Part shown: piece by piece, positions 3,900-23,908 of the stretch | Numbering within the stretch: position 1 is the first letter of the stretch | Layout: every line of letters begins with the position of its first letter | Assembly: GCA_029098305.1 (NCBI GenBank) | Contig: JAQXOB010000047.1 | Location: forward strand, 5,101-69,100 | Origin: Clostridia bacterium | GTDB taxonomy: Bacteria; Bacillota; Clostridia; Oscillospirales; Acutalibacteraceae | DNA: 64,000 bases | Reading direction: 5' to 3' | The notes under the pieces: generated by a model | What the model was told of the DNA's origin: nothing | The model's input: only the letters and a program-made list of their open reading frames with translations | The model's database searches: none | Position numbers and translations under genes: made by a program

Positions 3900-4907
3900 A
3901 TGTCTGAAGAAATTGAAAGAAAAAAACGAGTTTTTAGTGCGGTGCAACCAAGCGGAGGACTTACTCTGGGCAATTATCTTGGAGCATTGAAAAACTGGGT
4001 GAAAATGCAGGATGAGTTTGAGTGTATATATGCTCTGGCTGATCTGCACACAATAACTGTAAGGCAAGAGCCGGCAAAGATGCGTGCTAATATTATGGAG
4101 GCTTATGCGCTTTTTTTGGCATGTGGTGTTGACCCTGAAAAAAGTCCGTTCTTTATTCAGAGCCATGTGCATACACACGCAGAGCTCGCATGGCTTTTAA
4201 ATTGCTACACACAGTTTGGCGAGCTGGGCAGAATGACACAGTTTAAAGATAAGTCAGCCAAGCACGCTGACAACATAAACGCAGGTCTTTTTACATATCC
4301 ATCATTGATGGCAGCCGATATTCTGCTCTATCAGGCAGATATGGTTCCTGTGGGAGCAGACCAAAAGCAGCATCTTGAGCTTACAAGAGATATTGCACAG
4401 AGGTTCAATGGAATTTATGGCAACGTGTTTAAAATTCCGGAGGCTTATATTCCTAAGGCAGGCGCAAGGGTAATGTCTTTGCAAGAGCCAACCAGCAAGA
4501 TGAGCAAATCAGACACAAATGTTAACGGATGCATATATGTGTTAGACTCACCTGATGTTATTATAAAGAAATTCAAGCGCGCTGTTACAGATAGCGATGC
4601 CTGTGTGCGTTATGCCGATGGCAAAGACGGCATCAATAATCTTATGTCTATATACAGCTCTGTAACAGGAAAGTCATTTGACGAGATTGAGCGTGAGTTC
4701 GATGGCAAGGGCTATGGCGACTTTAAGCTTGCAGTAGGAGAAACTGTGGTTGAAGAGCTACGTCCTATACAAGAAAACTTCAAAAAACTTTCCGCCGACA
4801 AAGCTTATTTGCAGCAGTGCTATGCCAATGGTGCAGAGCTTGCACTCAGAATTTCTAAAAGAACTCTCGACAAAGCTATGAAGAAGATAGGCTTTGTTCT
4901 TAAATAA
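3900..4907 (+). CDS. trpS: Tryptophan--tRNA ligase
   Basis: Class I aaRS signatures: QPSGGLTLGNYLGAL N-terminal motif and KMSKS. Length and GADQKQHLELTRDIAQRFN are typical of bacterial TrpRS. Start moved to ATG 3900 (MSEEIERKK...). Confidence 0.92.
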   Translation: MSEEIERKKRVFSAVQPSGGLTLGNYLGALKNWVKMQDEFECIYALADLHTITVRQEPAKMRANIMEAYALFLACGVDPEKSPFFIQSHVHTHAELAWLLNCYTQFGELGRMTQFKDKSAKHADNINAGLFTYPSLMAADILLYQADMVPVGADQKQHLELTRDIAQRFNGIYGNVFKIPEAYIPKAGARVMSLQEPTSKMSKSDTNVNGCIYVLDSPDVIIKKFKRAVTDSDACVRYADGKDGINNLMSIYSSVTGKSFDEIEREFDGKGYGDFKLAVGETVVEELRPIQENFKKLSADKAYLQQCYANGAELALRISKRTLDKAMKKIGFVLK

Positions 4908-5098
4908 ATATGTATAATTAAAAGTCTATCTATTATATTTGTAGGTGGATACGGGTCATTTTTTGAAATTTAACAGCAAAAAAATGGCTCGATTTTTTCA
5001 TTCTAACAAAGTAAAGTTACCCAAAGATATAAAATCTAAAAACTTTATAATTCCTTTTACATAGTTAATTATTTGTTTAATATCGTTGCGAGGTGTGC

Positions 5099-5503
5099 AT
5101 GATGCAAAAGTTAAAAATTATATTATTTAGCATCCTTATATGTGCATTGTTTTTATCTGCTTGCTCTATAAAGGTTGATGACGATGCTTCGTCGGAACAC
5201 TTGATGAGCAGAGAATATGTTGCAGAGTGGTGCAAAACATCTAATTTTGGTTGGAGCAGTGACTCTATTCCTTATATAGCTTTAAACTATTTATACAACG
5301 ATGAAGAATTGAAAGAAAAATATGGAGAAACTTTTGTAGCGGATGATATTGGAGGAACTGCAGATTGGGATTTTAGATTATTTGATTTTTATAGTGGCAA
5401 AGCCACATATGTAGTCACCATCAAAGATGATAGATGGATTGTAGAATTATCTAAAGAATTTAGCAACAAATGGGAAATCACTAATTGTTATTATGACGAA
5501 TAG
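5099..5503 (+). CDS. Hypothetical lipoprotein
   Basis: GAGGTG SD lies upstream. Signal peptide with lipobox LSAC|S. No recognisable domain. Confidence 0.65.
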   Translation: MMQKLKIILFSILICALFLSACSIKVDDDASSEHLMSREYVAEWCKTSNFGWSSDSIPYIALNYLYNDEELKEKYGETFVADDIGGTADWDFRLFDFYSGKATYVVTIKDDRWIVELSKEFSNKWEITNCYYDE

Positions 5504-5683
5504 TAAAATGATATATCAGTATTATCTAGTATTACGAGAACAATAAACTGATAGGTATGAGCAGAGACGATGGAGAGGTTGTAAGCAAATACACCTGCAT
5601 TAAAAAATTACAGAGTAACACAATATATTTGGTAAAAGGATACATATTTAAAATAACTCGGTAGAGAGAGGATTAGTGTAATT

Positions 5684-7255
5684 ATGATAAAGAAAATTTC
5701 GATGATAGTTGTTATAATAACATTGTTTTCAGGCTGTACAGATATGCTCCATAATCATTTTGTTACAGATAATGAAAATGATCTTAAAATGCTTGATGCC
5801 ATACAGTATTCAAATTATGAAGCGTGCAAAGAAGCAATAAGCAGTGGTGCAAATATAGATCTTCTTTCGGGAAATATATGTGATAGAGTTGACAATCTCA
5901 TAGAGGAGAAAAACCCATTTATAATTACGTGCTTTTATCGCCAAACAAAAATATCTAAATTACTCATAGACATGGGTGCGTCGCCTGTTGCCTATGACGC
6001 AGAAGGATATCCATTAATTTGCTACACTATAAGAATGTGCGATATAGATTTATGTCAGTTTTTACTTGATAATGGAGCTGACATAAATCAAAAGAGTGAT
6101 AACGGTGTATTGCCTATAGAATGTTGTTTCCTCAATGATATTGTGCGTTCAGAAGAGCTTACACAGGATTACGCTGTTGAAAAAATGTTTGATTTTTTAG
6201 TTGCTAATGGTGCAATTGTAAATGAAGCCGTTCTTAACACTGCTATAAAAACAAACATTGAAACCGGCAATCATTATAAACTGATTAAAAAAATAGCTTC
6301 AATGCTGTCAGATGAGCAAATCCGGTCTATTGAGTCAAAGTTACTGTCATCTCTTTTGACCTCAGACTGGGAAACTGCTAATAAACTTATTCAAGATTCA
6401 AATAGCCTTAGCGATCAGGATATTGTTTATATTGCGGCATTCGGTAACACCGAGCAAATGCGTACATTAGGTGAATTAAACAACATAAAAGATGCAAAAG
6501 AAAACTCTTTAATGTCCATTGCTGCCACTACAGATAATTATGAAATGGTTTCATATTTGCTTAAAACCTTGACTTTAAGTGAATTTGAAGGCTATCACTC
6601 GTTAATGTCAGCGGTTCAGAATAATAGTTTTGACACAGTAAAAGTATTAATTGACAGTCATATTGATGTTTCATCATATAGACAGCCGAAACTATCTTAT
6701 GGTGTGCTGTCTTTTGCGTGTATTAATAATTCCGAAATAGCAAAATATTTGTTAAAGACAGAATTGTTTCAAGATGAATTGCAAGAAGCACTTATTCTGT
6801 CATCTAGGTGGGAAAAAACCAATATGATAGAAACATTATTCGAATATAAGGCAGATATTAATATGGATGTCGGCGGAAATACACCACTTATAGAGGCTAT
6901 CTTCTCAGGAGCAAAAGATAGCGTGAAAGTTCTCATAGAGCTTGGTGCTTCTACAAACGAGGAAAGCCCAATGGGTACACCTCTTGGCGAAGCTTGCTAT
7001 TGTGGTGAATATGAAATTGTTAAAATATTGATTGATAGTGGAAGCGACATAAATAAATGTGATGACTTAAATCAAACGCCGATGTACTACGCAACATATA
7101 GCGGGTCATTGGATATAGTAAAATATCTTATCGAAAAAGGATATAGGGTAACATCAGAAGATGTGGATAATGCAATAATGTTTCCATCTGATAACATAAC
7201 AGAATATCTTCGATCTAGCCTTGATGAAACAGCAGTAACAAATACTGCTGAGTAA
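5684..7255 (+). CDS. Ankyrin-repeat lipoprotein
   Basis: Lipobox LFSGC|T. Multiple ankyrin repeats, e.g. GNTPLIEAIFSGAKDSVKVLIELGASTNEE, GTPLGEACYCGEYEIVKILIDSGSDINKCD and NQTPMYYATYSGSLDIVKYLIEKGYRV. Confidence 0.85.
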   Translation: MIKKISMIVVIITLFSGCTDMLHNHFVTDNENDLKMLDAIQYSNYEACKEAISSGANIDLLSGNICDRVDNLIEEKNPFIITCFYRQTKISKLLIDMGASPVAYDAEGYPLICYTIRMCDIDLCQFLLDNGADINQKSDNGVLPIECCFLNDIVRSEELTQDYAVEKMFDFLVANGAIVNEAVLNTAIKTNIETGNHYKLIKKIASMLSDEQIRSIESKLLSSLLTSDWETANKLIQDSNSLSDQDIVYIAAFGNTEQMRTLGELNNIKDAKENSLMSIAATTDNYEMVSYLLKTLTLSEFEGYHSLMSAVQNNSFDTVKVLIDSHIDVSSYRQPKLSYGVLSFACINNSEIAKYLLKTELFQDELQEALILSSRWEKTNMIETLFEYKADINMDVGGNTPLIEAIFSGAKDSVKVLIELGASTNEESPMGTPLGEACYCGEYEIVKILIDSGSDINKCDDLNQTPMYYATYSGSLDIVKYLIEKGYRVTSEDVDNAIMFPSDNITEYLRSSLDETAVTNTAE

Positions 7256-17250: not shown

Positions 17251-17277
17251 ATCGCCGAAGTTTTTCGGCGATTTTTC
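17251..17277 (+). terminator. Rho-independent terminator
   Basis: atcgccgaa / ttcggcgat 9-bp GC-rich stem followed by TTTTT. Confidence 0.8.
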
Positions 17278-17558
17278 TTTTTCGCTTATATTACAAATCC
17301 ACATTCATAACAATATAAATTATTTAAAATATAAGGATTTTTGGAAAACATATTACCAAATATTATTTCTAAGCTATGACTATTATTCACATATGATATA
17401 TTACGCTATTTTGCTCGTTTAGTCAATGCTTTTCTGTCTTATACAGCCACTAACAATACCAACATCTTTCGTGTAAAAAACGCTTTACAATGCTGATAGC
17501 TTGTGATAGAATATGTATGTGTTATATTAAACATATTATTTTATGGAGGTATAATTTT

Positions 17559-17813
17559 ATGAAAAAAATATTAGCAGCCTTGGGAGCATGTACATTAATT
17601 TTTACCACTATGGCAACATCTTATGCTCTCGATCCTATCGTTAGTCCTGTTGCTCCGGTGTATTCTGACTCTGATTCAGCAACAGACTCAGACACACATA
17701 CAAATACATCACCTAACGCACCAATAACAGGTGACATTACACCTGTGCTTCTGCTTCTTGCAGGTGGCTCTGCTGTGTGTGCATTGGTTAGCAGAAAAAA
17801 AGCTGACAAATAA
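17559..17813 (+). CDS. Minimal sortase substrate: 84-aa secreted Asp/Ser/Thr-rich protein with APITG cell-wall sorting signal
   Basis: GGAGG lies 9 nt before ATG 17559. Signal peptide MKKILAALGACTLIFTTMATSYA. C-terminus is SPNAPITGD, then the hydrophobic ITPVLLLLAGGSAVCALV, then the basic tail SRKKADK. Confidence 0.8.
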   Translation: MKKILAALGACTLIFTTMATSYALDPIVSPVAPVYSDSDSATDSDTHTNTSPNAPITGDITPVLLLLAGGSAVCALVSRKKADK

Positions 17814-17862
17814 CACATTTTTTTAATCAAAAGGTTTATTTTCCTGAAGGGATGTAATTTTA

Positions 17863-18663
17863 ATGAATAATAAAAAAATTAAATCGCTTGTCGTTAAGCG
17901 TATTTTAAGCATAGCTTTAACGGCAAGCTTGGTTGCTTTGAGCTCTTTTGGGTTTTCCGGATGCAAATCTAATAAATCCACAGATTTTGTGAGCGATGTA
18001 AACACTGTTTCCCTTGATCCTATTGTTGATACAAGCGATGTTGATTCTGATGATACAGTGGTACTTGTAGAAAACCCTATAAACTTCGAAGATCTCCAGT
18101 CAAAGAACAGTGACCTTTATGCATGGATATATATTCCAAACACTTCTGTTGATTATCCTATAGCACAAAGTGCACCTGATGTAGATGATTCTTTTTATCT
18201 CCATCATGGCATCGATAAGAGTTACTTCTTTGCAGGCACTATCTATACAGAAAAGGCAAACAGCAAAGATTTTACCGATAGAAACACTTTGCTTTATGGT
18301 CACAATATGCTAGATGGCTCTATGTTTACAACTATACACAAGTTTGAGGACGAAAAGTTCTTTAACGATAATGAATATATCTACATATACACACCAGGCC
18401 ATATATTAACTTATAGAATCTTTGCAGCATATGAGTCTGACGATAGGCATATCCTCAATTCATATGATTTTTCAAAAGATGATGTCTGGGAAGAATATGT
18501 AAAGCAGGTGTCTAAGCCTGAATCAATATACACTTGCAACTATCGTGATGTTGGCTTGTCCACAGACAACACAATCATCACACTAAGCACCTGCACAAGC
18601 TACAGATCAAACAACAGATACCTTGTGCAAGCATATCTCTATAAAGACACACCCACAAAGTAA
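17863..18663 (+). CDS. srtB: Class B sortase (paralog 1)
   Basis: N-terminal membrane anchor (ends in the lipobox-like FSGC). DLYAWIYIPNTSVDYPIAQ, LYGHNMLDGSMF (catalytic His) and TLSTC (catalytic Cys) are typical of class B. Confidence 0.88.
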   Translation: MNNKKIKSLVVKRILSIALTASLVALSSFGFSGCKSNKSTDFVSDVNTVSLDPIVDTSDVDSDDTVVLVENPINFEDLQSKNSDLYAWIYIPNTSVDYPIAQSAPDVDDSFYLHHGIDKSYFFAGTIYTEKANSKDFTDRNTLLYGHNMLDGSMFTTIHKFEDEKFFNDNEYIYIYTPGHILTYRIFAAYESDDRHILNSYDFSKDDVWEEYVKQVSKPESIYTCNYRDVGLSTDNTIITLSTCTSYRSNNRYLVQAYLYKDTPTK

Positions 18664-18697
18664 TTTTTCCAAAGTTACTTGAAAGGAAGTGGAAACA

Positions 18698-19510
18698 ATG
18701 GGTAATAACAGTAAAAAAGCGAAAAAACAAGCAAACAAAACAAACGCCAGAGTTTCAGTGGTTGTAGCATGCATATTGATAGCGTGTTGTGTTGGTTTTT
18801 TTGGATATAACGGAGTAAAAAGCAAACAAACAGAGGATCTTATCAGCAGCGTAAAGAACACCTCTTTAGCTCCTTTGGATGATATAAACTCCTCTAATAA
18901 CAGTGATGTAAGCGTAACACTTCAAACCCCTATTAACTTTGAAGATTTGCAAGAAAAAAACAGTGATTTATACTCTTGGGTATATGTTCCAAACACATCT
19001 GTAGATTATCCGGTAGCACAGAGTGCCGATGATGGCTTTTATCTGCACCGTGGCACCGACAAAAGCTACTATTTTGCAGGCACTATCTACACAGAGAGCA
19101 CATACAACAGCACCGACTACAACGATAGAAACACTGTGCTATATGGTCACAATATGCTTGACGGCTCTATGTTTGCAACATTGCATAAGTTTGAGGGTGA
19201 GGAATTTTTCAACGAGAACGAATATTTTTACATTTACACTCCAGACCGTATCCTCACATACAGAATATTTGCTGCATATGAAGTGGATGATAGACATATT
19301 CTAAAAACTCATGATTTTTCAGATGATAGCGTATGGTCTGAATATCTTAATGAGATATCTAATCCTCAATCTGATTATACATGCAACTCGCGTGACGTAG
19401 AGTTATCCTTGGATAGCAAAATTGTAACTTTGAGCACCTGCACAAACTTCAGAGCCAATGACAGATATATTGTCCAGGGGGTGCTTATTGATGAACAAAC
19501 TACAGTTTAA
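18698..19510 (+). CDS. srtB: Class B sortase (paralog 2)
   Basis: Same motifs (DLYSWVYVPNTSVDYPVAQ, LYGHNMLDGSMF, TLSTC). Clearly paralogous to the upstream gene. An alternative GTG start lies at 18689. Confidence 0.88.
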   Translation: MGNNSKKAKKQANKTNARVSVVVACILIACCVGFFGYNGVKSKQTEDLISSVKNTSLAPLDDINSSNNSDVSVTLQTPINFEDLQEKNSDLYSWVYVPNTSVDYPVAQSADDGFYLHRGTDKSYYFAGTIYTESTYNSTDYNDRNTVLYGHNMLDGSMFATLHKFEGEEFFNENEYFYIYTPDRILTYRIFAAYEVDDRHILKTHDFSDDSVWSEYLNEISNPQSDYTCNSRDVELSLDSKIVTLSTCTNFRANDRYIVQGVLIDEQTTV

Positions 19511-20969
19511 TGATTTAAACAAAACCACAGATAATTTAAAGAAAACCACGGACAACGACGATCCTATACCACATTCTGAAAGGAAAGTAGTCAAAGTCAG
19601 GGTAGTAAAAAGAGTGACAAATTCTGAACCATCGCAAAGTCAAGCACGAATTGCAAAAGCAATGCAATCACCGTCAGATTCACAAGACAAAGAAAATTAT
19701 GAAGGATATCTTTTTGAATCTTCATATCAAAACAACCACGAAAGTAAATCTAAACGCAGTGAAAAAAAATCTGATTCGACTACACTGATAAGAGGTGATG
19801 TTCAAGGTGCAATACTTGAAGAAGCCGCACAGAGCGCCTCTAGTGACTATGATGATTATATATATTATAAAGAGCGCTATGACCTATCGAAACGTGGCAA
19901 GCACAAACACAGACACAATGATAAAAATGATGATAAAAACGGCAAAGTAAAACACAAGCTTCTTAGGTCTGTTTTGATTATAATGTTGTCTTTGATAGTA
20001 CTGGTTGTAGGTTGCTTTTTTTCACTAAGACAAATTGGTAAGGATGCTTTGTTAAAACAAAGTGAAAAAATAGAAACTCCTGATCTTGGCGGAGAGGTAA
20101 TCTCTGAAAACAATGGTCATATTATTAAATACAATGGTCACACCTATGAATATAACGAAAATATTACGAACATACTATTTATTGGAGTCGATAAAACCGA
20201 ATTGGGTGCTATTGACGGCGTTGTCGGAAAAGGAGGACAAGCCGATGCAATATATCTTGCAGCCCTAGATATTGAAGATGGAAGTATCATTACCTTTGCT
20301 ATACCGCGTGAAACAATGGCAGATATAGCTGTCTATTCAAGCTCCGGCTCATATTTGGGCATAGAAAACAAACAAATATGTCTGTCATATGCATATGGAG
20401 ATGGAAAAATAGAGAGCTGTAATAATCTTATAAGCTCACTTGAAAAACAATTTTTCGGAATAGAGATACAATCTTTTTTTGCCATGGACCTCATGGGCAT
20501 CAACGCCATGAACGACAATATCGGAGGCGTGGATGTTACACTGGACTATGATACCGTTATTAAAGGTCGTGAATTTAAGGCAGGAGTTCCTGTTCACCTT
20601 GCGGGCAGTATGGCAGAAGCCTTTGTGAGAACAAGAAGTCTAACAGAGGTCGATGCAAATATCAAACGTATGGAGAGACAAAAAATTTATCTAAATGCGT
20701 ACATTGATAAAGCTATTAAAATGACAAAAGAAGATATAAAAACTCCTTTGAATATTTACAATGCTGCAAGCGATTATTCTATAACAAGTATAGATGCGGC
20801 ATCAGTAACATATCTTGCCACACGCCTTATAGACAAAAATATTACTTTTCCAAATATTATGCGTCTGCCAGGCGAGGTAAAAATGGGAAAAGAATACGCA
20901 GAGTTCTATGTAGATGAGCAAGAATTCTACGAAATGTTTCTCGAAACATATTACAACCAAATTAATTGA
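19491..20969 (+). CDS. LytR-CpsA-Psr (LCP) family phosphotransferase with long charged cytoplasmic N-terminus
   Basis: ILFIGVDK...GGQADAIYLAALD...PRET is the LCP core. Single TM (LLRSVLIIMLSLIVLVVGCFF) after ~165 charged residues. ATG 19491 overlaps the srtB stop by 20 nt, with GGGGGTG SD upstream. Confidence 0.85.
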   Translation: MNKLQFNDLNKTTDNLKKTTDNDDPIPHSERKVVKVRVVKRVTNSEPSQSQARIAKAMQSPSDSQDKENYEGYLFESSYQNNHESKSKRSEKKSDSTTLIRGDVQGAILEEAAQSASSDYDDYIYYKERYDLSKRGKHKHRHNDKNDDKNGKVKHKLLRSVLIIMLSLIVLVVGCFFSLRQIGKDALLKQSEKIETPDLGGEVISENNGHIIKYNGHTYEYNENITNILFIGVDKTELGAIDGVVGKGGQADAIYLAALDIEDGSIITFAIPRETMADIAVYSSSGSYLGIENKQICLSYAYGDGKIESCNNLISSLEKQFFGIEIQSFFAMDLMGINAMNDNIGGVDVTLDYDTVIKGREFKAGVPVHLAGSMAEAFVRTRSLTEVDANIKRMERQKIYLNAYIDKAIKMTKEDIKTPLNIYNAASDYSITSIDAASVTYLATRLIDKNITFPNIMRLPGEVKMGKEYAEFYVDEQEFYEMFLETYYNQIN

Positions 20970-21402: not shown

Positions 21403-21454
21403 TTTTGTTCACTTTCTGCCCGATTCGCTTATTGCATTGATATAACCCTACAAC

Positions 21455-21627
21455 TTATTTATAGGGAGCCGGACTCCTGAGATTGTGTGCAGACCTCCCG
21501 ATTTTTCGGAAGAAGGGAGCCTGAGGTCAAGGGGAGGCACCCACCTGTCGATTAGTAGGCAGGTTGTAAAAAATGCGCTACGGTCGGGCGGAATAAACAT
21601 ACTTTCCAAAACAAAAAGCCTTACACA
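21455..21627 (+). other. GC-rich structured non-coding element (candidate leader RNA, sRNA or REP-like repeat)
   Basis: Visibly GC-rich island in AT-rich intergenic DNA. Contains GGGAGCC twice and complementary blocks gacctccc / ggggaggc and acctg...caggt. The only ORF across it is an implausible N-terminal extension of the next gene. Confidence 0.5.
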
Positions 21628-21673: not shown

Positions 21674-23908
21674 ATGATAAAAATGAACAAATTAAGAAAA
21701 ATCATTGCAATAGCTCTTGTTGCATCTGTGTTAGGAACAGCCGGTGTGTCTGCATCTGCTACTTCTATTGAAGCAGGCGAAACATCACACGCTGTAGTAA
21801 GCATTAAGAACAGTGATGCAGAAGTCAAGACAAAAACTATTGCTACAGAAAGCAACGAAATTATCATAAGTGAAGACTCCATAACAATCGATGGCGAAAA
21901 AGACGAGAAATCTTATGATATGTACATATTAAAAGGTGATTATAGCTCAGACCTAAAGATTGTTATTGATAGCGAAACAAAGCGAGATATAAACATTCAG
22001 CTTGAAGAATTTACTTTAGATAAAACAAACGAAGAAGCTTTGATTTCATCAGATGCAACATGTAACATCAATTTAGTTCTTGCTGGTATCGGAAGTACAA
22101 TCAAATCATCAGCAGAAAAAGCAACAGCTTTAATCTCTGCTCCAAATGCTTCACTTAACATTCAGCCAGATGTATATAGAGGTCACAATTCTATCCTCAG
22201 TGTAATCTCCACATCAGAAGCAATAGACGAAGACACCTCTGTAGGATGTCTTGCTGTTAAAAAACTGACATTTGTAGCAGGTGCAAAGGTAAATTTCGAA
22301 AGCAAAGCCAACTCTGCTATAATATCTGATGCAGTCACTGTTAACCCAGATGTAGAAATTCGTCTTAATGTAGCCTGCAGCAGAAAGATTATTACAAACG
22401 ATTATAAACAGCAGGGTGGTGGTGTTTTCTTTGGTCATGAAAATACCGGCTCTCTCATCTATCTCACATATATTAAAGAAACAAATAGTTTTGCAAACTT
22501 TAGAGTCATAGATGGTCATCTTGAAGGTAGTACAGATGGCTACTGTGTTGAAGGTGACGTTATAAACCAGGCATCAATTATCGGCGGAACAATACGCTTA
22601 GAGTCTAGCTCAAAACCGGTATTTTATGCAAGAAGAAAGTTTCAGGATTTCTTCATTAATGGCGGAATTGTTGAACTTTTAACGTCTGCCGCTCACACAG
22701 TAGAATGTAACACAACTGAATTTATCAAATTCAGCAATTCACACGCAGTTATACTTAACGACGGTAACACACACATAACTTGCACAGAGTATCCATTCGC
22801 AAAAAAGACCCCGAACGGTCACTTTGAGAAAGTTGATCCATACAATCTACTAGGTCAAAAAGTATATCAGCACCACATTGATCTTGAGAGCATTAGACTT
22901 AGCTTACGATATTTTAATCTCGTTGAAGTGCTCAAAAACAATGATTACAACCTAGGACATGTTCTATATAATGACGTGCTTGTAAGCACCAAAGATAAAT
23001 TTGATCTTGGTGGTGAAGGTCCTTATATCTGGCTTAGTGAGCCACAAAAGGGCGACAATGGTGCACTTATATTCACTAATATTGGATTGACCTTTAAACA
23101 TGTTGGAGCGTTTTCTGATTATATAGAAAATATAGATACGGTTCCTGCTGAGATGGCATATGACAACTCATCATTGTTTGTGTTTTTTGATAAGAGAAAC
23201 GGTATAAATGGAACTGATAGCGTAACACAAATTACCGACTACAAACTTCCTGCTAAAATCGATGTACCTGAAAAAGATGAAATATACGATGATAAATTCT
23301 TAGGCTACTATGATTCCACCGATTGGACAAAGAAGTATTATGATGAAAACGGCAATCTTGTAGCTGATGCAGATATCAGAGAAAATACATTCTTAGTTGC
23401 ACAGTGGCAAACTGATGTTAAGGTTGAGGCTGAGCGTATGGATGTTCACTTTGTTCTCAATGGTGGCACGTGCGACTTCCACAGCAACTTTATGGATAAT
23501 GACTTTAACTCTACCATACCGCTTAAAGAAGACTTTGTAATTCCTGATGCTGTAAAAGAAGGCAAAACATTCCTTGGATGGTATCTTTCACCTGATGGCA
23601 GTGGCGAGAGAATCTTAAATTCTGCTATGCTGATCGACCTACTCGGCACAGAGAATGTTACATTGTATGCTATTTGGGAAGGAGAAACCTACACTAAAGC
23701 AATGTATGGTGACGCCAACTGCGATGGTTTCGTAAATATGGAAGATGTAACTACGATTCAAAAGGTTATTGCAGAACTTATCACTCCTGAAAAGGCTGGA
23801 GATAATTATGCAATTAATTCAGATGTTACACATGACGAAAAAACAACAATGGAAGACGTTGTTCTTATCCAGAGATATCTGGCTAAGCTTGTGGATAGCC
23901 TCGATTGA
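21674..23908 (+). CDS. Secreted dockerin-containing protein (possible Cthe_2159-like beta-helix region, Listeria-Bacteroides-type repeats, C-terminal dockerin)
   Basis: Signal peptide MIKMNKLRKIIAIALVASVLGTAGVSASA. GKTFLGWYLSPDGSGERI...LYAIWEG repeat. Dockerin GDANCDGFVNMEDVTTIQKVIAEL and SDVTHDEKTTMEDVVLIQRYLAKL. The beta-helix call is tentative. Confidence 0.8.
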   Translation: MIKMNKLRKIIAIALVASVLGTAGVSASATSIEAGETSHAVVSIKNSDAEVKTKTIATESNEIIISEDSITIDGEKDEKSYDMYILKGDYSSDLKIVIDSETKRDINIQLEEFTLDKTNEEALISSDATCNINLVLAGIGSTIKSSAEKATALISAPNASLNIQPDVYRGHNSILSVISTSEAIDEDTSVGCLAVKKLTFVAGAKVNFESKANSAIISDAVTVNPDVEIRLNVACSRKIITNDYKQQGGGVFFGHENTGSLIYLTYIKETNSFANFRVIDGHLEGSTDGYCVEGDVINQASIIGGTIRLESSSKPVFYARRKFQDFFINGGIVELLTSAAHTVECNTTEFIKFSNSHAVILNDGNTHITCTEYPFAKKTPNGHFEKVDPYNLLGQKVYQHHIDLESIRLSLRYFNLVEVLKNNDYNLGHVLYNDVLVSTKDKFDLGGEGPYIWLSEPQKGDNGALIFTNIGLTFKHVGAFSDYIENIDTVPAEMAYDNSSLFVFFDKRNGINGTDSVTQITDYKLPAKIDVPEKDEIYDDKFLGYYDSTDWTKKYYDENGNLVADADIRENTFLVAQWQTDVKVEAERMDVHFVLNGGTCDFHSNFMDNDFNSTIPLKEDFVIPDAVKEGKTFLGWYLSPDGSGERILNSAMLIDLLGTENVTLYAIWEGETYTKAMYGDANCDGFVNMEDVTTIQKVIAELITPEKAGDNYAINSDVTHDEKTTMEDVVLIQRYLAKLVDSLD

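Follow-up and report, generated by a model that had tools for sequence, protein, structure and literature searches.

Operon at positions 17559-20969

The window analyzed here, a stretch of 64,000 nt from Clostridia bacterium contig JAQXOB010000047.1, carries at positions 17559-20969 of the forward strand four co-oriented genes encoding a very small sortase substrate (the mini-substrate), two class B sortases (SrtB1 and SrtB2) and an LCP transferase. This operon is the smallest known form of a cassette common in gut Clostridia, which brings together a small wall-anchored protein, a SrtB and an unusual LCP enzyme. The probable role of the cassette is to attach a surface polysaccharide to the cell wall by way of a protein handle, and our analysis leans towards a route in which the LCP enzyme would load a glycan onto the small carrier and SrtB would then anchor the carrier to peptidoglycan. 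The four genes are as follows.

17559..17813, + strand: mini sortase substrate gene, 84 aa, proposed glycan carrier (open reading frame; GGAGG ribosome-binding site 9 nt upstream of the ATG)
17863..18663, + strand: class B sortase 1, 266 aa (TIGR03064, 158.0 bits against a cut-off of 153.75; PF04203)
18698..19510, + strand: class B sortase 2, 270 aa from ATG 18698 (TIGR03064, 166.6 bits against 153.75)
19491..20969, + strand: divergent LCP transferase, 492 aa (PF03816, 67 bits against a cut-off of 24.6; ATG with GGGGGTG upstream)

Successive genes are separated by 49 nt, 25-34 nt and −20 nt, and no terminator-like site was seen between them in our scan. An operon of this composition had been proposed in a sequence-only reading of the window. 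Its genes, coordinates and APITG sorting signal stand, but its mature size of ~45 aa for the first product has to be lowered to 34 residues, and the start of SrtB2 is more likely at ATG 18698 (ribosome-binding site GAAAGGAAG) than at the alternative GTG 18689.

The mini-substrate

The product of the first gene is almost entirely made of targeting signals, which we delimited as follows.

17559..17627, + strand: signal peptide, residues 1-23 (MKK…TSYA; predicted cut TSYA/LD), read from the sequence and aligning with the signal peptides of 17 cassette substrates
17628..17669, + strand: conserved mature N-terminus LDPIVSPVAPVYSD, a candidate acceptor or recognition site
17643-17648, + strand: Ser29-Pro30, family-invariant, inside LDPIVSPVAPVYSD (S29 invariant in alignment A2)
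17718..17810, + strand: cell-wall sorting signal, made of APITG (17718-17732), a hydrophobic segment of 20 residues (17733-17792) and RKKADK (17793-17810)

The earlier identification of APITG as a SrtB-type sorting signal, followed by a hydrophobic segment and RKKADK, is correct to the nucleotide. Between the signal peptide and APITG, the 84-aa protein reads LDPIVSPVAPVYSDSDSATDSDTHTNTSPN, and the peptide predicted to be left after the signal-peptidase and sortase cuts is LDPIVSPVAPVYSDSDSATDSDTHTNTSPNAPIT, 34 residues that include 11 Ser/Thr, 5 Asp and 5 Pro and not a single Lys or Arg.

A database search with the mini protein matched only its own cluster. When genome contigs were scanned with the LCP, the only close relative recovered was L053 (‘Clostridiaceae bacterium MAG143’; LCP 88% identical), which has the same four genes. 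Its copy of the mini gene differs from that of the window by 16 synonymous and 8 non-synonymous changes, that is, a ratio of non-synonymous to synonymous rates (dN/dS) of 0.14, and one change only falls within the mature peptide, which argues that the mini open reading frame is a real gene. In G022, a more distant species of the genus, the mini gene encodes 83 aa with an APKTG motif and is accompanied by two sortases. Its product shares the first 14 mature residues, LDPIVSPVAPVYSD, with that of the window despite an LCP only 58% identical. The mini gene is kept in three genomes of the genus, with a mature carrier of 34 residues here and of 27 residues in the sister species.

These observations bear on the idea that the mini gene is the decaying stub of a larger surface protein, the sortases being housekeeping anchors for a scaffoldin and a leucine-rich repeat (LRR)/vWA adhesin encoded elsewhere in the genome and the linkage to the LCP gene being merely historical. 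Decay would suit the confinement of the tiny form to this genus, the presence of two other APxTG proteins in the genome and a database search that returns the mini protein alone. It fits poorly with the low dN/dS and the nearly unchanged mature peptide, with a signal peptide and a sorting signal that are intact, with a 14-residue N-terminus kept identical since the split from G022, and with the strong ribosome-binding site of the gene, and we consider it improbable.

Two further properties of the mini protein were considered and set aside. It is not taken as a lipoprotein, the NCBIfam model LP_plasma scoring 20.2 bits, below its cut-off of 24, and the Cys being missing in G022. The mature N-terminus of the mini-substrate (17628-17642) and the linker of SrtB1 (18013-18027) have the pentapeptide LDPIV in common; the sister species' SrtB1 reads VSLQTLTD there, and the match is probably due to chance.

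Two class B sortases and their candidate substrates

SrtB1 and SrtB2 are 58% identical to each other and carry the following motifs.

SrtB1, + strand: lipobox-like FSGC 17953-17964; YGHNM (His) 18295-18309; TLSTC (Cys) 18580-18594
SrtB2, + strand: N-terminal transmembrane helix 18752-18808; YGHNM 19142-19156; TLSTC 19427-19441

The catalytic His-Cys-Arg is present in both enzymes (YGHNM, TLSTC and NNR/NDR) and aligns to the same residues of 5b23 and 5gyj, their best solved relatives being the SrtBs of Clostridium perfringens (5b23) and Clostridioides difficile (5gyj/4ux7). A class E sortase model reached 20.5 bits against a cut-off of 160, so that both sortases belong to class B and not to the class E of the Actinomyces oris type. 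According to the sortase tree, the duplication predates the split from G022. Tandem sortases together with a tiny substrate are restricted to this genus, all other genera having one sortase and a substrate of 129-248 aa. The N-terminal hydrophobic segment of SrtB1 ends in a lipobox-like FSG/C, the Cys of which is kept in the genus' two other genomes, and the N-terminus of SrtB2 is a plain transmembrane helix; the paralogs may therefore differ in their attachment to the membrane.

The host organism is uncultured and its assembly (1.64 Mb, 37.6% G+C) is 99.6% complete. It contains three sortase domains, those of SrtB1 and SrtB2 and that of a long fusion protein on another contig. This third domain lies in a 615-codon frame (C36:36535-38382), is ~26% identical to SrtB1 and SrtB2, and is embedded in a protein with a ~200-aa cytoplasmic N-terminal region, a transmembrane helix and an acidic C-terminal tail rich in Ser, Thr, Asp and Glu. 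A search of this genome for other [SPA]PxTG proteins returned exactly two with such a sorting signal. The first is a 236-aa cohesin-domain protein on contig C9 that ends in APITG and resembles ScaE, a cell-surface anchoring scaffoldin for dockerin proteins; the second is a 994-aa LRR/vWA/Listeria-Bacteroides-repeat protein (C42:15821-18805, − strand) that ends in APKTG. The candidate substrates of this genome hence carry APITG, APITG and APKTG, and orthologous cassettes mostly have SPxTG. Given these two other APxTG proteins, the sortases are probably not reserved for the mini peptide, and they probably also anchor the cohesin scaffoldin and the large adhesin.

This wider set of substrates also bears on the need for two sortases. 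The earlier proposal that one of them polymerises and the other anchors gains no support from a mature peptide lacking a Lys nucleophile and from a genome encoding two other APxTG proteins. Pilin-like polymerisation was rejected on the same absence of Lys and because SrtB2 is a genus-level tandem duplicate.

A Gln-type clade of LCP enzymes

Residues 1-147 of the LCP enzyme form a disordered cytoplasmic tail, which precedes a transmembrane helix at residues ~150-187. The first 156 residues (19491-19958) are low-complexity, rich in Lys, Asp, Ser and His and predicted to be disordered (predicted local distance difference test, pLDDT, <50). The length of this tail is very variable among orthologs, whole proteins ranging from 335 to 503 aa, and the tail of L053 contains a 24-residue insertion. 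The distinguishing features of the enzyme lie in the catalytic domain.

20238-20240, + strand: Gln250, replacing the first conserved Arg (GRxD) (alignment to TagV; clade alignment)
20373-20420, + strand: clade insert QICLSYAYGDGKIESC (clade alignment)

An AlphaFold2 (AF2) model built from the clade alignment has pLDDT values >85 across the domain and matches TagV, Staphylococcus aureus LcpA, TagT, Cps2A and A. oris LcpA with TM-scores of 0.55-0.82 (target 0.70-0.82), the E-values for the first four ranging from 1e-16 to 1e-11. The enzyme retains R273 of the IPR(D/E) motif, R380 and R382 of RxR, and R393 and Q397 of RxxRQ. R273 and R382 are invariant among cassette LCPs, so that two of the three active-site Arg are kept and the first is a Gln. 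The Mg-binding Asp pair, D234 and D252, is invariant as well (alignment A1), and was matched to D234/D246 of Cps2A by motif (GxD, xxD).

The replacement is a property of the cassette enzymes as a group, which nearly always read G-Q-A/S-D instead of G-R-S/T-D (Met in L047 and L048, Glu in L088) and which share an insert with two Cys, Q-x-C-L-A-Y-A-Y-G-D-G-x3-S-C. The genome studied here encodes two LCPs, that of the cassette and a canonical one (136 bits); the latter and seven canonical paralogs from five other cassette genomes all keep the Arg. No sortase was found within the 1.5-kb flanks of the canonical Arg-type genes, while all five Gln-type genes of the five cassette genomes have one. Judged from their sequences, the cassette LCPs are a distinct clade linked to sortase and substrate genes.

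Located 21-23 residues ahead of the IPR Arg, the Gln250 site corresponds, by motif and spacing, to R128 of A. oris LcpA and to R99 of S. aureus LcpA. In A. oris LcpA, the R128A mutant still glycosylates the sortase substrate GspA, whereas R149A and R266A do not (PMC6381275), and it is the equivalents of R149 and R266, the essential residues, that are conserved in the window enzyme and the other cassette LCPs, the dispensable R128 being the one replaced by Gln. As for R99 of S. aureus LcpA, it adjoins the proposed binding sites for peptidoglycan sugars (PMC7831098). By homology, the altered Arg would lie on the acceptor side of the active site.

Conservation of the cassette in Clostridia

We surveyed the family with one genome from each of 150 other genera. 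An LCP ortholog was present in 24 of them (~1 in 6). Counted over 151 genomes, SrtB and LCP occur together in 24, LCP alone in 1, a SrtB-like protein alone in 9 (6 of these weak) and neither in 117. Gene order was then compared at 20 family loci. In 19 of these SrtB lies directly upstream of LCP, and in 18 of the 19 the two genes overlap by 17-29 nt, as counted from the earliest possible start of LCP to the SrtB stop, the overlap being exactly 17 nt in 11. The 20-nt overlap noticed in the window between the second sortase gene and the LCP start, and read from the outset as translational coupling, is thus the local instance of a recurrent arrangement. A small sorting-signal protein (129-248 aa, [S/A]PxT[G/S/N]) adjoins the pair at 17 of the 20 loci, upstream at 16 and downstream at 1, and the genes flanking the cassette vary from locus to locus. 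The cassette clearly behaves like a single accessory unit with a patchy distribution.

With a profile of the cassette LCPs, members of this clade were detected in at least seven further families of the class, in which the genes are arranged differently: LCP-SrtB-substrate at L074, SrtB-LCP-substrate at L079 and L080, and SrtB-substrate with a convergent LCP at L081 and L084. CpsB/CpsC-type genes are found at other loci outside the family. In total, the LCP gene is linked to a gene for a sorting-signal protein at 17 of 20 family loci and at least nine loci of other families, and a linkage that survives rearrangement points to a functional tie. Synteny conservation, which had been named beforehand as a test of the proposed pathway, therefore extends across genera and families. 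At two loci from two other Clostridia families, L083 and L086, the substrate gene abuts or overlaps a Gln-type LCP gene and there is no sortase within 5 kb; at L083, the overlapping substrate and LCP genes (4348-5025 and 4991-6037) directly follow genes for Wzz and a BY-kinase. Sortase-free pairs of this kind suggest that the small protein is tied to the LCP itself. The L083 and L086 pairs both sit in a Wzz/BY-kinase capsule locus, and their sorting motifs, PPVTG and QPPTG, are unusual.

This tie is relevant to a reversed order of events, in which the sortase would join the Thr of the carrier to an amino group belonging to the polymer itself or to a lipid-linked precursor of the glycan, and the LCP would then move the conjugate to peptidoglycan, or else the protein would merely decorate a wall-bound polymer. 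The tight translational coupling of SrtB and LCP would be in keeping with such an order, as would the use by C. difficile SrtB of the non-canonical nucleophile diaminopimelate, which we take from a reference as cited in PMC13121745. We nevertheless regard a reversed order as very improbable, as it has no precedent, the altered Arg lies by homology on the acceptor side, and the sortase-free pairs indicate a direct relation between the LCP and the substrate.

Common features of the cassette substrates

The middle part of the substrates is highly variable. In 6 of 18 proteins it is an InlB B-repeat domain of divergent sequence, in others it is Gly/Tyr- or Gly/Pro-rich, and in the genus studied here it is missing. 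Besides the signal peptide and the sorting signal, the substrates conserve a Ser-Pro dipeptide located 3-8 residues past the predicted cleavage site, Ser29 being the sole invariant residue outside the two termini. The dipeptide is present in 16 of the 18 substrates; of 104 other proteins of this genome that have a signal peptide, only 2 carry it at the same position. A variable middle flanked by a Ser-Pro and a sorting signal that are both kept is more easily reconciled with a linear acceptor or recognition site than with a folded functional domain.

The composition of the mini peptide admits another function, that of an unglycosylated Asp/Ser-rich wall peptide providing fixed negative charge to a wall devoid of classical teichoic acid, with the LCP acting independently. 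The mature peptide indeed has 5 Asp and no basic residue, and a PF00953 search of the genome found one member, read as MraY, and no TagO-type enzyme. As acidity is not a constant feature of the substrates of other genera, which contain folded domains, and as a charged peptide would leave unexplained both the LCP clade and the capsule phenotype associated with the homologous cluster described below, we give this function hardly any credence.

A homologous cluster required for capsule display in M. gnavus

Two genes of a related arrangement have been studied genetically in Mediterraneibacter gnavus. Clean deletion of srtB4 (RGna_12035), with complementation, established that capsule display and competitive colonisation of the gut depend on this sortase (PMC13121745, 2026), and disruption of the LCP gene RGna_12040 causes the same loss of capsule and of gut fitness (PMC13121745). 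The study gives no mechanism for the sortase requirement, mentions only candidate sortase targets near sortase genes (PMC13121745), and draws no link between the sorting-signal protein and the capsule.

The published check primer for srtB4 matched 59 human-gut metagenome contigs. Locus L138 carries, in order, genes for Wzz, SrtB, LCP, a short open reading frame, a 237-aa SPQTG protein with a membrane anchor, CpsB and CpsD. Its SrtB is 44% identical to SrtB1, and its LCP, the start of which overlaps the sortase gene by 14 nt, contains SGQSD and YAYGDG…SC. The Wzz-type gene that precedes the sortase lies at L138:6979-7710. The short frame between the LCP and SPQTG genes (L138:9558-10004), of 148 codons, is Cys/Arg-rich and without family match, and may be no real gene. 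The substrate gene itself is the following.

L138, 10040-10753: gene for the SPQTG protein, two genes downstream of LCP

The shared SrtB-LCP overlap, the Gln-type LCP and the SPQTG protein make the M. gnavus cluster (RGna_12030-12060) homologous to the window cassette. Both have a SrtB gene overlapping that of a Gln-type LCP (by 14 nt and 20 nt, respectively) and a small sorting-signal protein. The M. gnavus cluster differs in that it is located inside a capsule locus (Wzz, CpsB, CpsD and sugar genes), whereas the window operon stands alone, and in that it has one sortase and a downstream substrate of 200-237 aa.

The authors of that study read the RGna_12040 LCP as a ligase of the canonical type (PMC13121745). 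Extended to the whole cassette, this interpretation would have the LCP ligate the polysaccharide directly to peptidoglycan and the sortase anchor proteins. The small protein would be an accessory, serving as a spacer, as a scaffold or within the capsule machinery, and the genes would be kept together since all act on nascent peptidoglycan. Attachment to N-acetylmuramic acid (MurNAc) is the established default chemistry of LCP enzymes (PMC7831098), and the fold and the catalytic core of the window enzyme (R273, RxR, RxxRQ and Asp234/252) are intact. Direct ligation does not explain, however, why capsule display needs a sortase, why the passenger domain was lost while a 14-residue N-terminus remained under selection, or why linkage to sortase and substrate genes is confined to the Gln-type clade, given that every examined cassette genome has an Arg-type LCP as well. 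On balance we find direct ligation unlikely, while granting it appreciable weight.

Comparison with other systems

LCP-mediated glycosylation of a sortase substrate is already known in one actinobacterium, and a SrtB-LCP capsule phenotype in one Lachnospiraceae species. In A. oris, LcpA glycosylates GspA before a sortase anchors GspA to the wall (PMC6381275), and the GspA-LcpA-SrtA system resembles that of the window in the linkage of the LCP gene to the gene of the sortase-anchored protein (PMC6381275; PMC7831098). The A. oris system is actinobacterial and uses a class E housekeeping sortase (LAxTG) encoded outside the locus and a full-size GspA; in the window, by contrast, a class B sortase is translationally coupled to the LCP and the substrate has 34 residues. 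The two LCP enzymes are also distant. A. oris LcpA (5v8c) is the weakest LCP match of the clade profile (E 6e-4) with a fold TM-score of 0.70, and its stabilising disulfide is not shared, the Cys pair of the window enzyme being located in the clade-specific insert.

Canonical LCPs (TagT/U/V, S. aureus LcpA and Cps2A) share with the window enzyme their fold (TM-score 0.73-0.82), the Mg-binding Asp, the IPR(D/E) Arg, RxR and RxxRQ. They lack what sets it apart, namely Gln in place of the first Arg, the two-Cys insert, the long disordered tail and the constant linkage to a sortase and a substrate. As for the sorting step, C. difficile SrtB and its (S/P)PxTG substrates provide the same sortase type and the same succession of xPxTG, hydrophobic segment and basic tail (PMC4155245, PMC5569036); these substrates are ordinary adhesins for which no LCP coupling is described, and the window genus has Ala as first residue of the motif. 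Our literature search found no paper on the three-gene module, the Gln-type LCP clade, the N-terminal Ser-Pro motif or a minimal carrier.

Transcription signals and neighbouring genes

Two kinds of signal-like sequence were seen upstream of the operon.

17484..17555, + strand: promoter-like sites, TTTACA-17-TAGAAT with TG and TAAACA-16-TATAAT (consensus scan only)
17251-17272, 5′ of the mini-substrate gene: terminator-like hairpin of the upstream gene

A riboswitch or cyclic di-GMP element was sought upstream of the operon and none was found, the sole nearby Rfam match being a 6S RNA located downstream. Antisense open reading frames over the operon do not exceed 84 aa and were given no weight. 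The neighbours of the operon are genes for a DUF6465 protein, a dehydrogenase, a DUF1292 protein, the 6S RNA and a dockerin protein. The 6S RNA gene (SsrS) is full-length (21410-21598, + strand; RF00013, 57.8 bits against a gathering threshold of 46.4, E 7e-10). It explains the ‘GC-rich structured element’ upstream of the dockerin-protein gene and renders the long open reading frame start at 21485 spurious, the start of the dockerin protein being more likely near 21680.

A proposed model for glycan anchoring through a protein carrier

In the sequence of events that we propose, the carrier would be exported and its sorting signal would retain it in the membrane, while the LCP enzyme would be produced in step with the sortase from the overlapping genes. 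The LCP would move a polyprenyl-pyrophosphate-linked glycan, as glycan-1-phosphate, to a hydroxyl of the carrier, most probably in the invariant Ser-Pro of the mature N-terminus or in the Ser/Thr-rich stalk. SrtB would then cut APITG between Thr and Gly and join the loaded carrier to peptidoglycan, so that a protein handle, and no direct bond to MurNAc, would attach the polysaccharide to the wall. The passenger domain of this handle has disappeared in the genus studied here, in which the sortase gene has also been duplicated in tandem. The genome encodes two polyprenyl-phosphate priming glycosyltransferases which, with its two LCPs, make glycan donors plausible. A carrier of this kind would account for the sortase dependence of the capsule, the three-way gene linkage, the acceptor-side change in the LCP clade and the shrinkage of the carrier around a preserved N-terminus.

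Several considerations weigh against this model. That the carrier is the acceptor of the LCP, and which of its residues is modified, are points that we infer. The Arg-to-Gln change could affect the handling of the donor instead of the choice of the acceptor, the correspondence of Gln250 with R128 and R99 being based on motif and spacing and not on superposition. The N-terminal Ser-Pro is looser outside the family, where it occurs at ~6 of 10 loci, with SP, PS or TP in most of the ten. A sorting motif is no guarantee of anchoring, since CD0183 and CD2768 of C. difficile carry SPxTG and are not sorted in vivo (PMC5569036). Glycan-synthesis genes, which accompany the M. gnavus cluster, are absent beside the window operon and are located on other contigs. 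A sortase substrate with a structural role in the capsule machinery would likewise produce the phenotype of M. gnavus. Finally, the sampled genomes are related and not independent, which makes the survey counts descriptive. The GspA-like pathway first suggested for this operon consequently gains support from the conserved cassette, the special LCP clade and the M. gnavus phenotype, while glycosylation of the peptide is still something that we infer.

We extend the model, more tentatively and with slightly less than even confidence, to many Clostridia including M. gnavus. In these bacteria, Gln-type LCPs would phosphoglycosylate a small carrier, probably at its N-terminal Ser-Pro, and the cognate SrtB would anchor it, with no direct ligation of polysaccharide to peptidoglycan; the 34-residue peptide of the window would be a minimal natural acceptor. 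The model provides a testable mechanism for the unexplained requirement of a sortase in capsule display and gut colonisation by M. gnavus. The signature formed by G-Q-A/S-D and YAYGDG…SC, next to a SrtB and a small [S/A]PxTG protein, distinguishes LCPs that putatively act on proteins from those that act on the wall. A natural carrier of 34 residues, or 27 in the sister species, would mark the minimal acceptor and could be useful for in vitro assays and for the design of sortase-anchored glycoconjugates. If the model is true, LCP-mediated protein glycosylation, known from one actinobacterium, would also operate in a broad range of Clostridia from gut and rumen.

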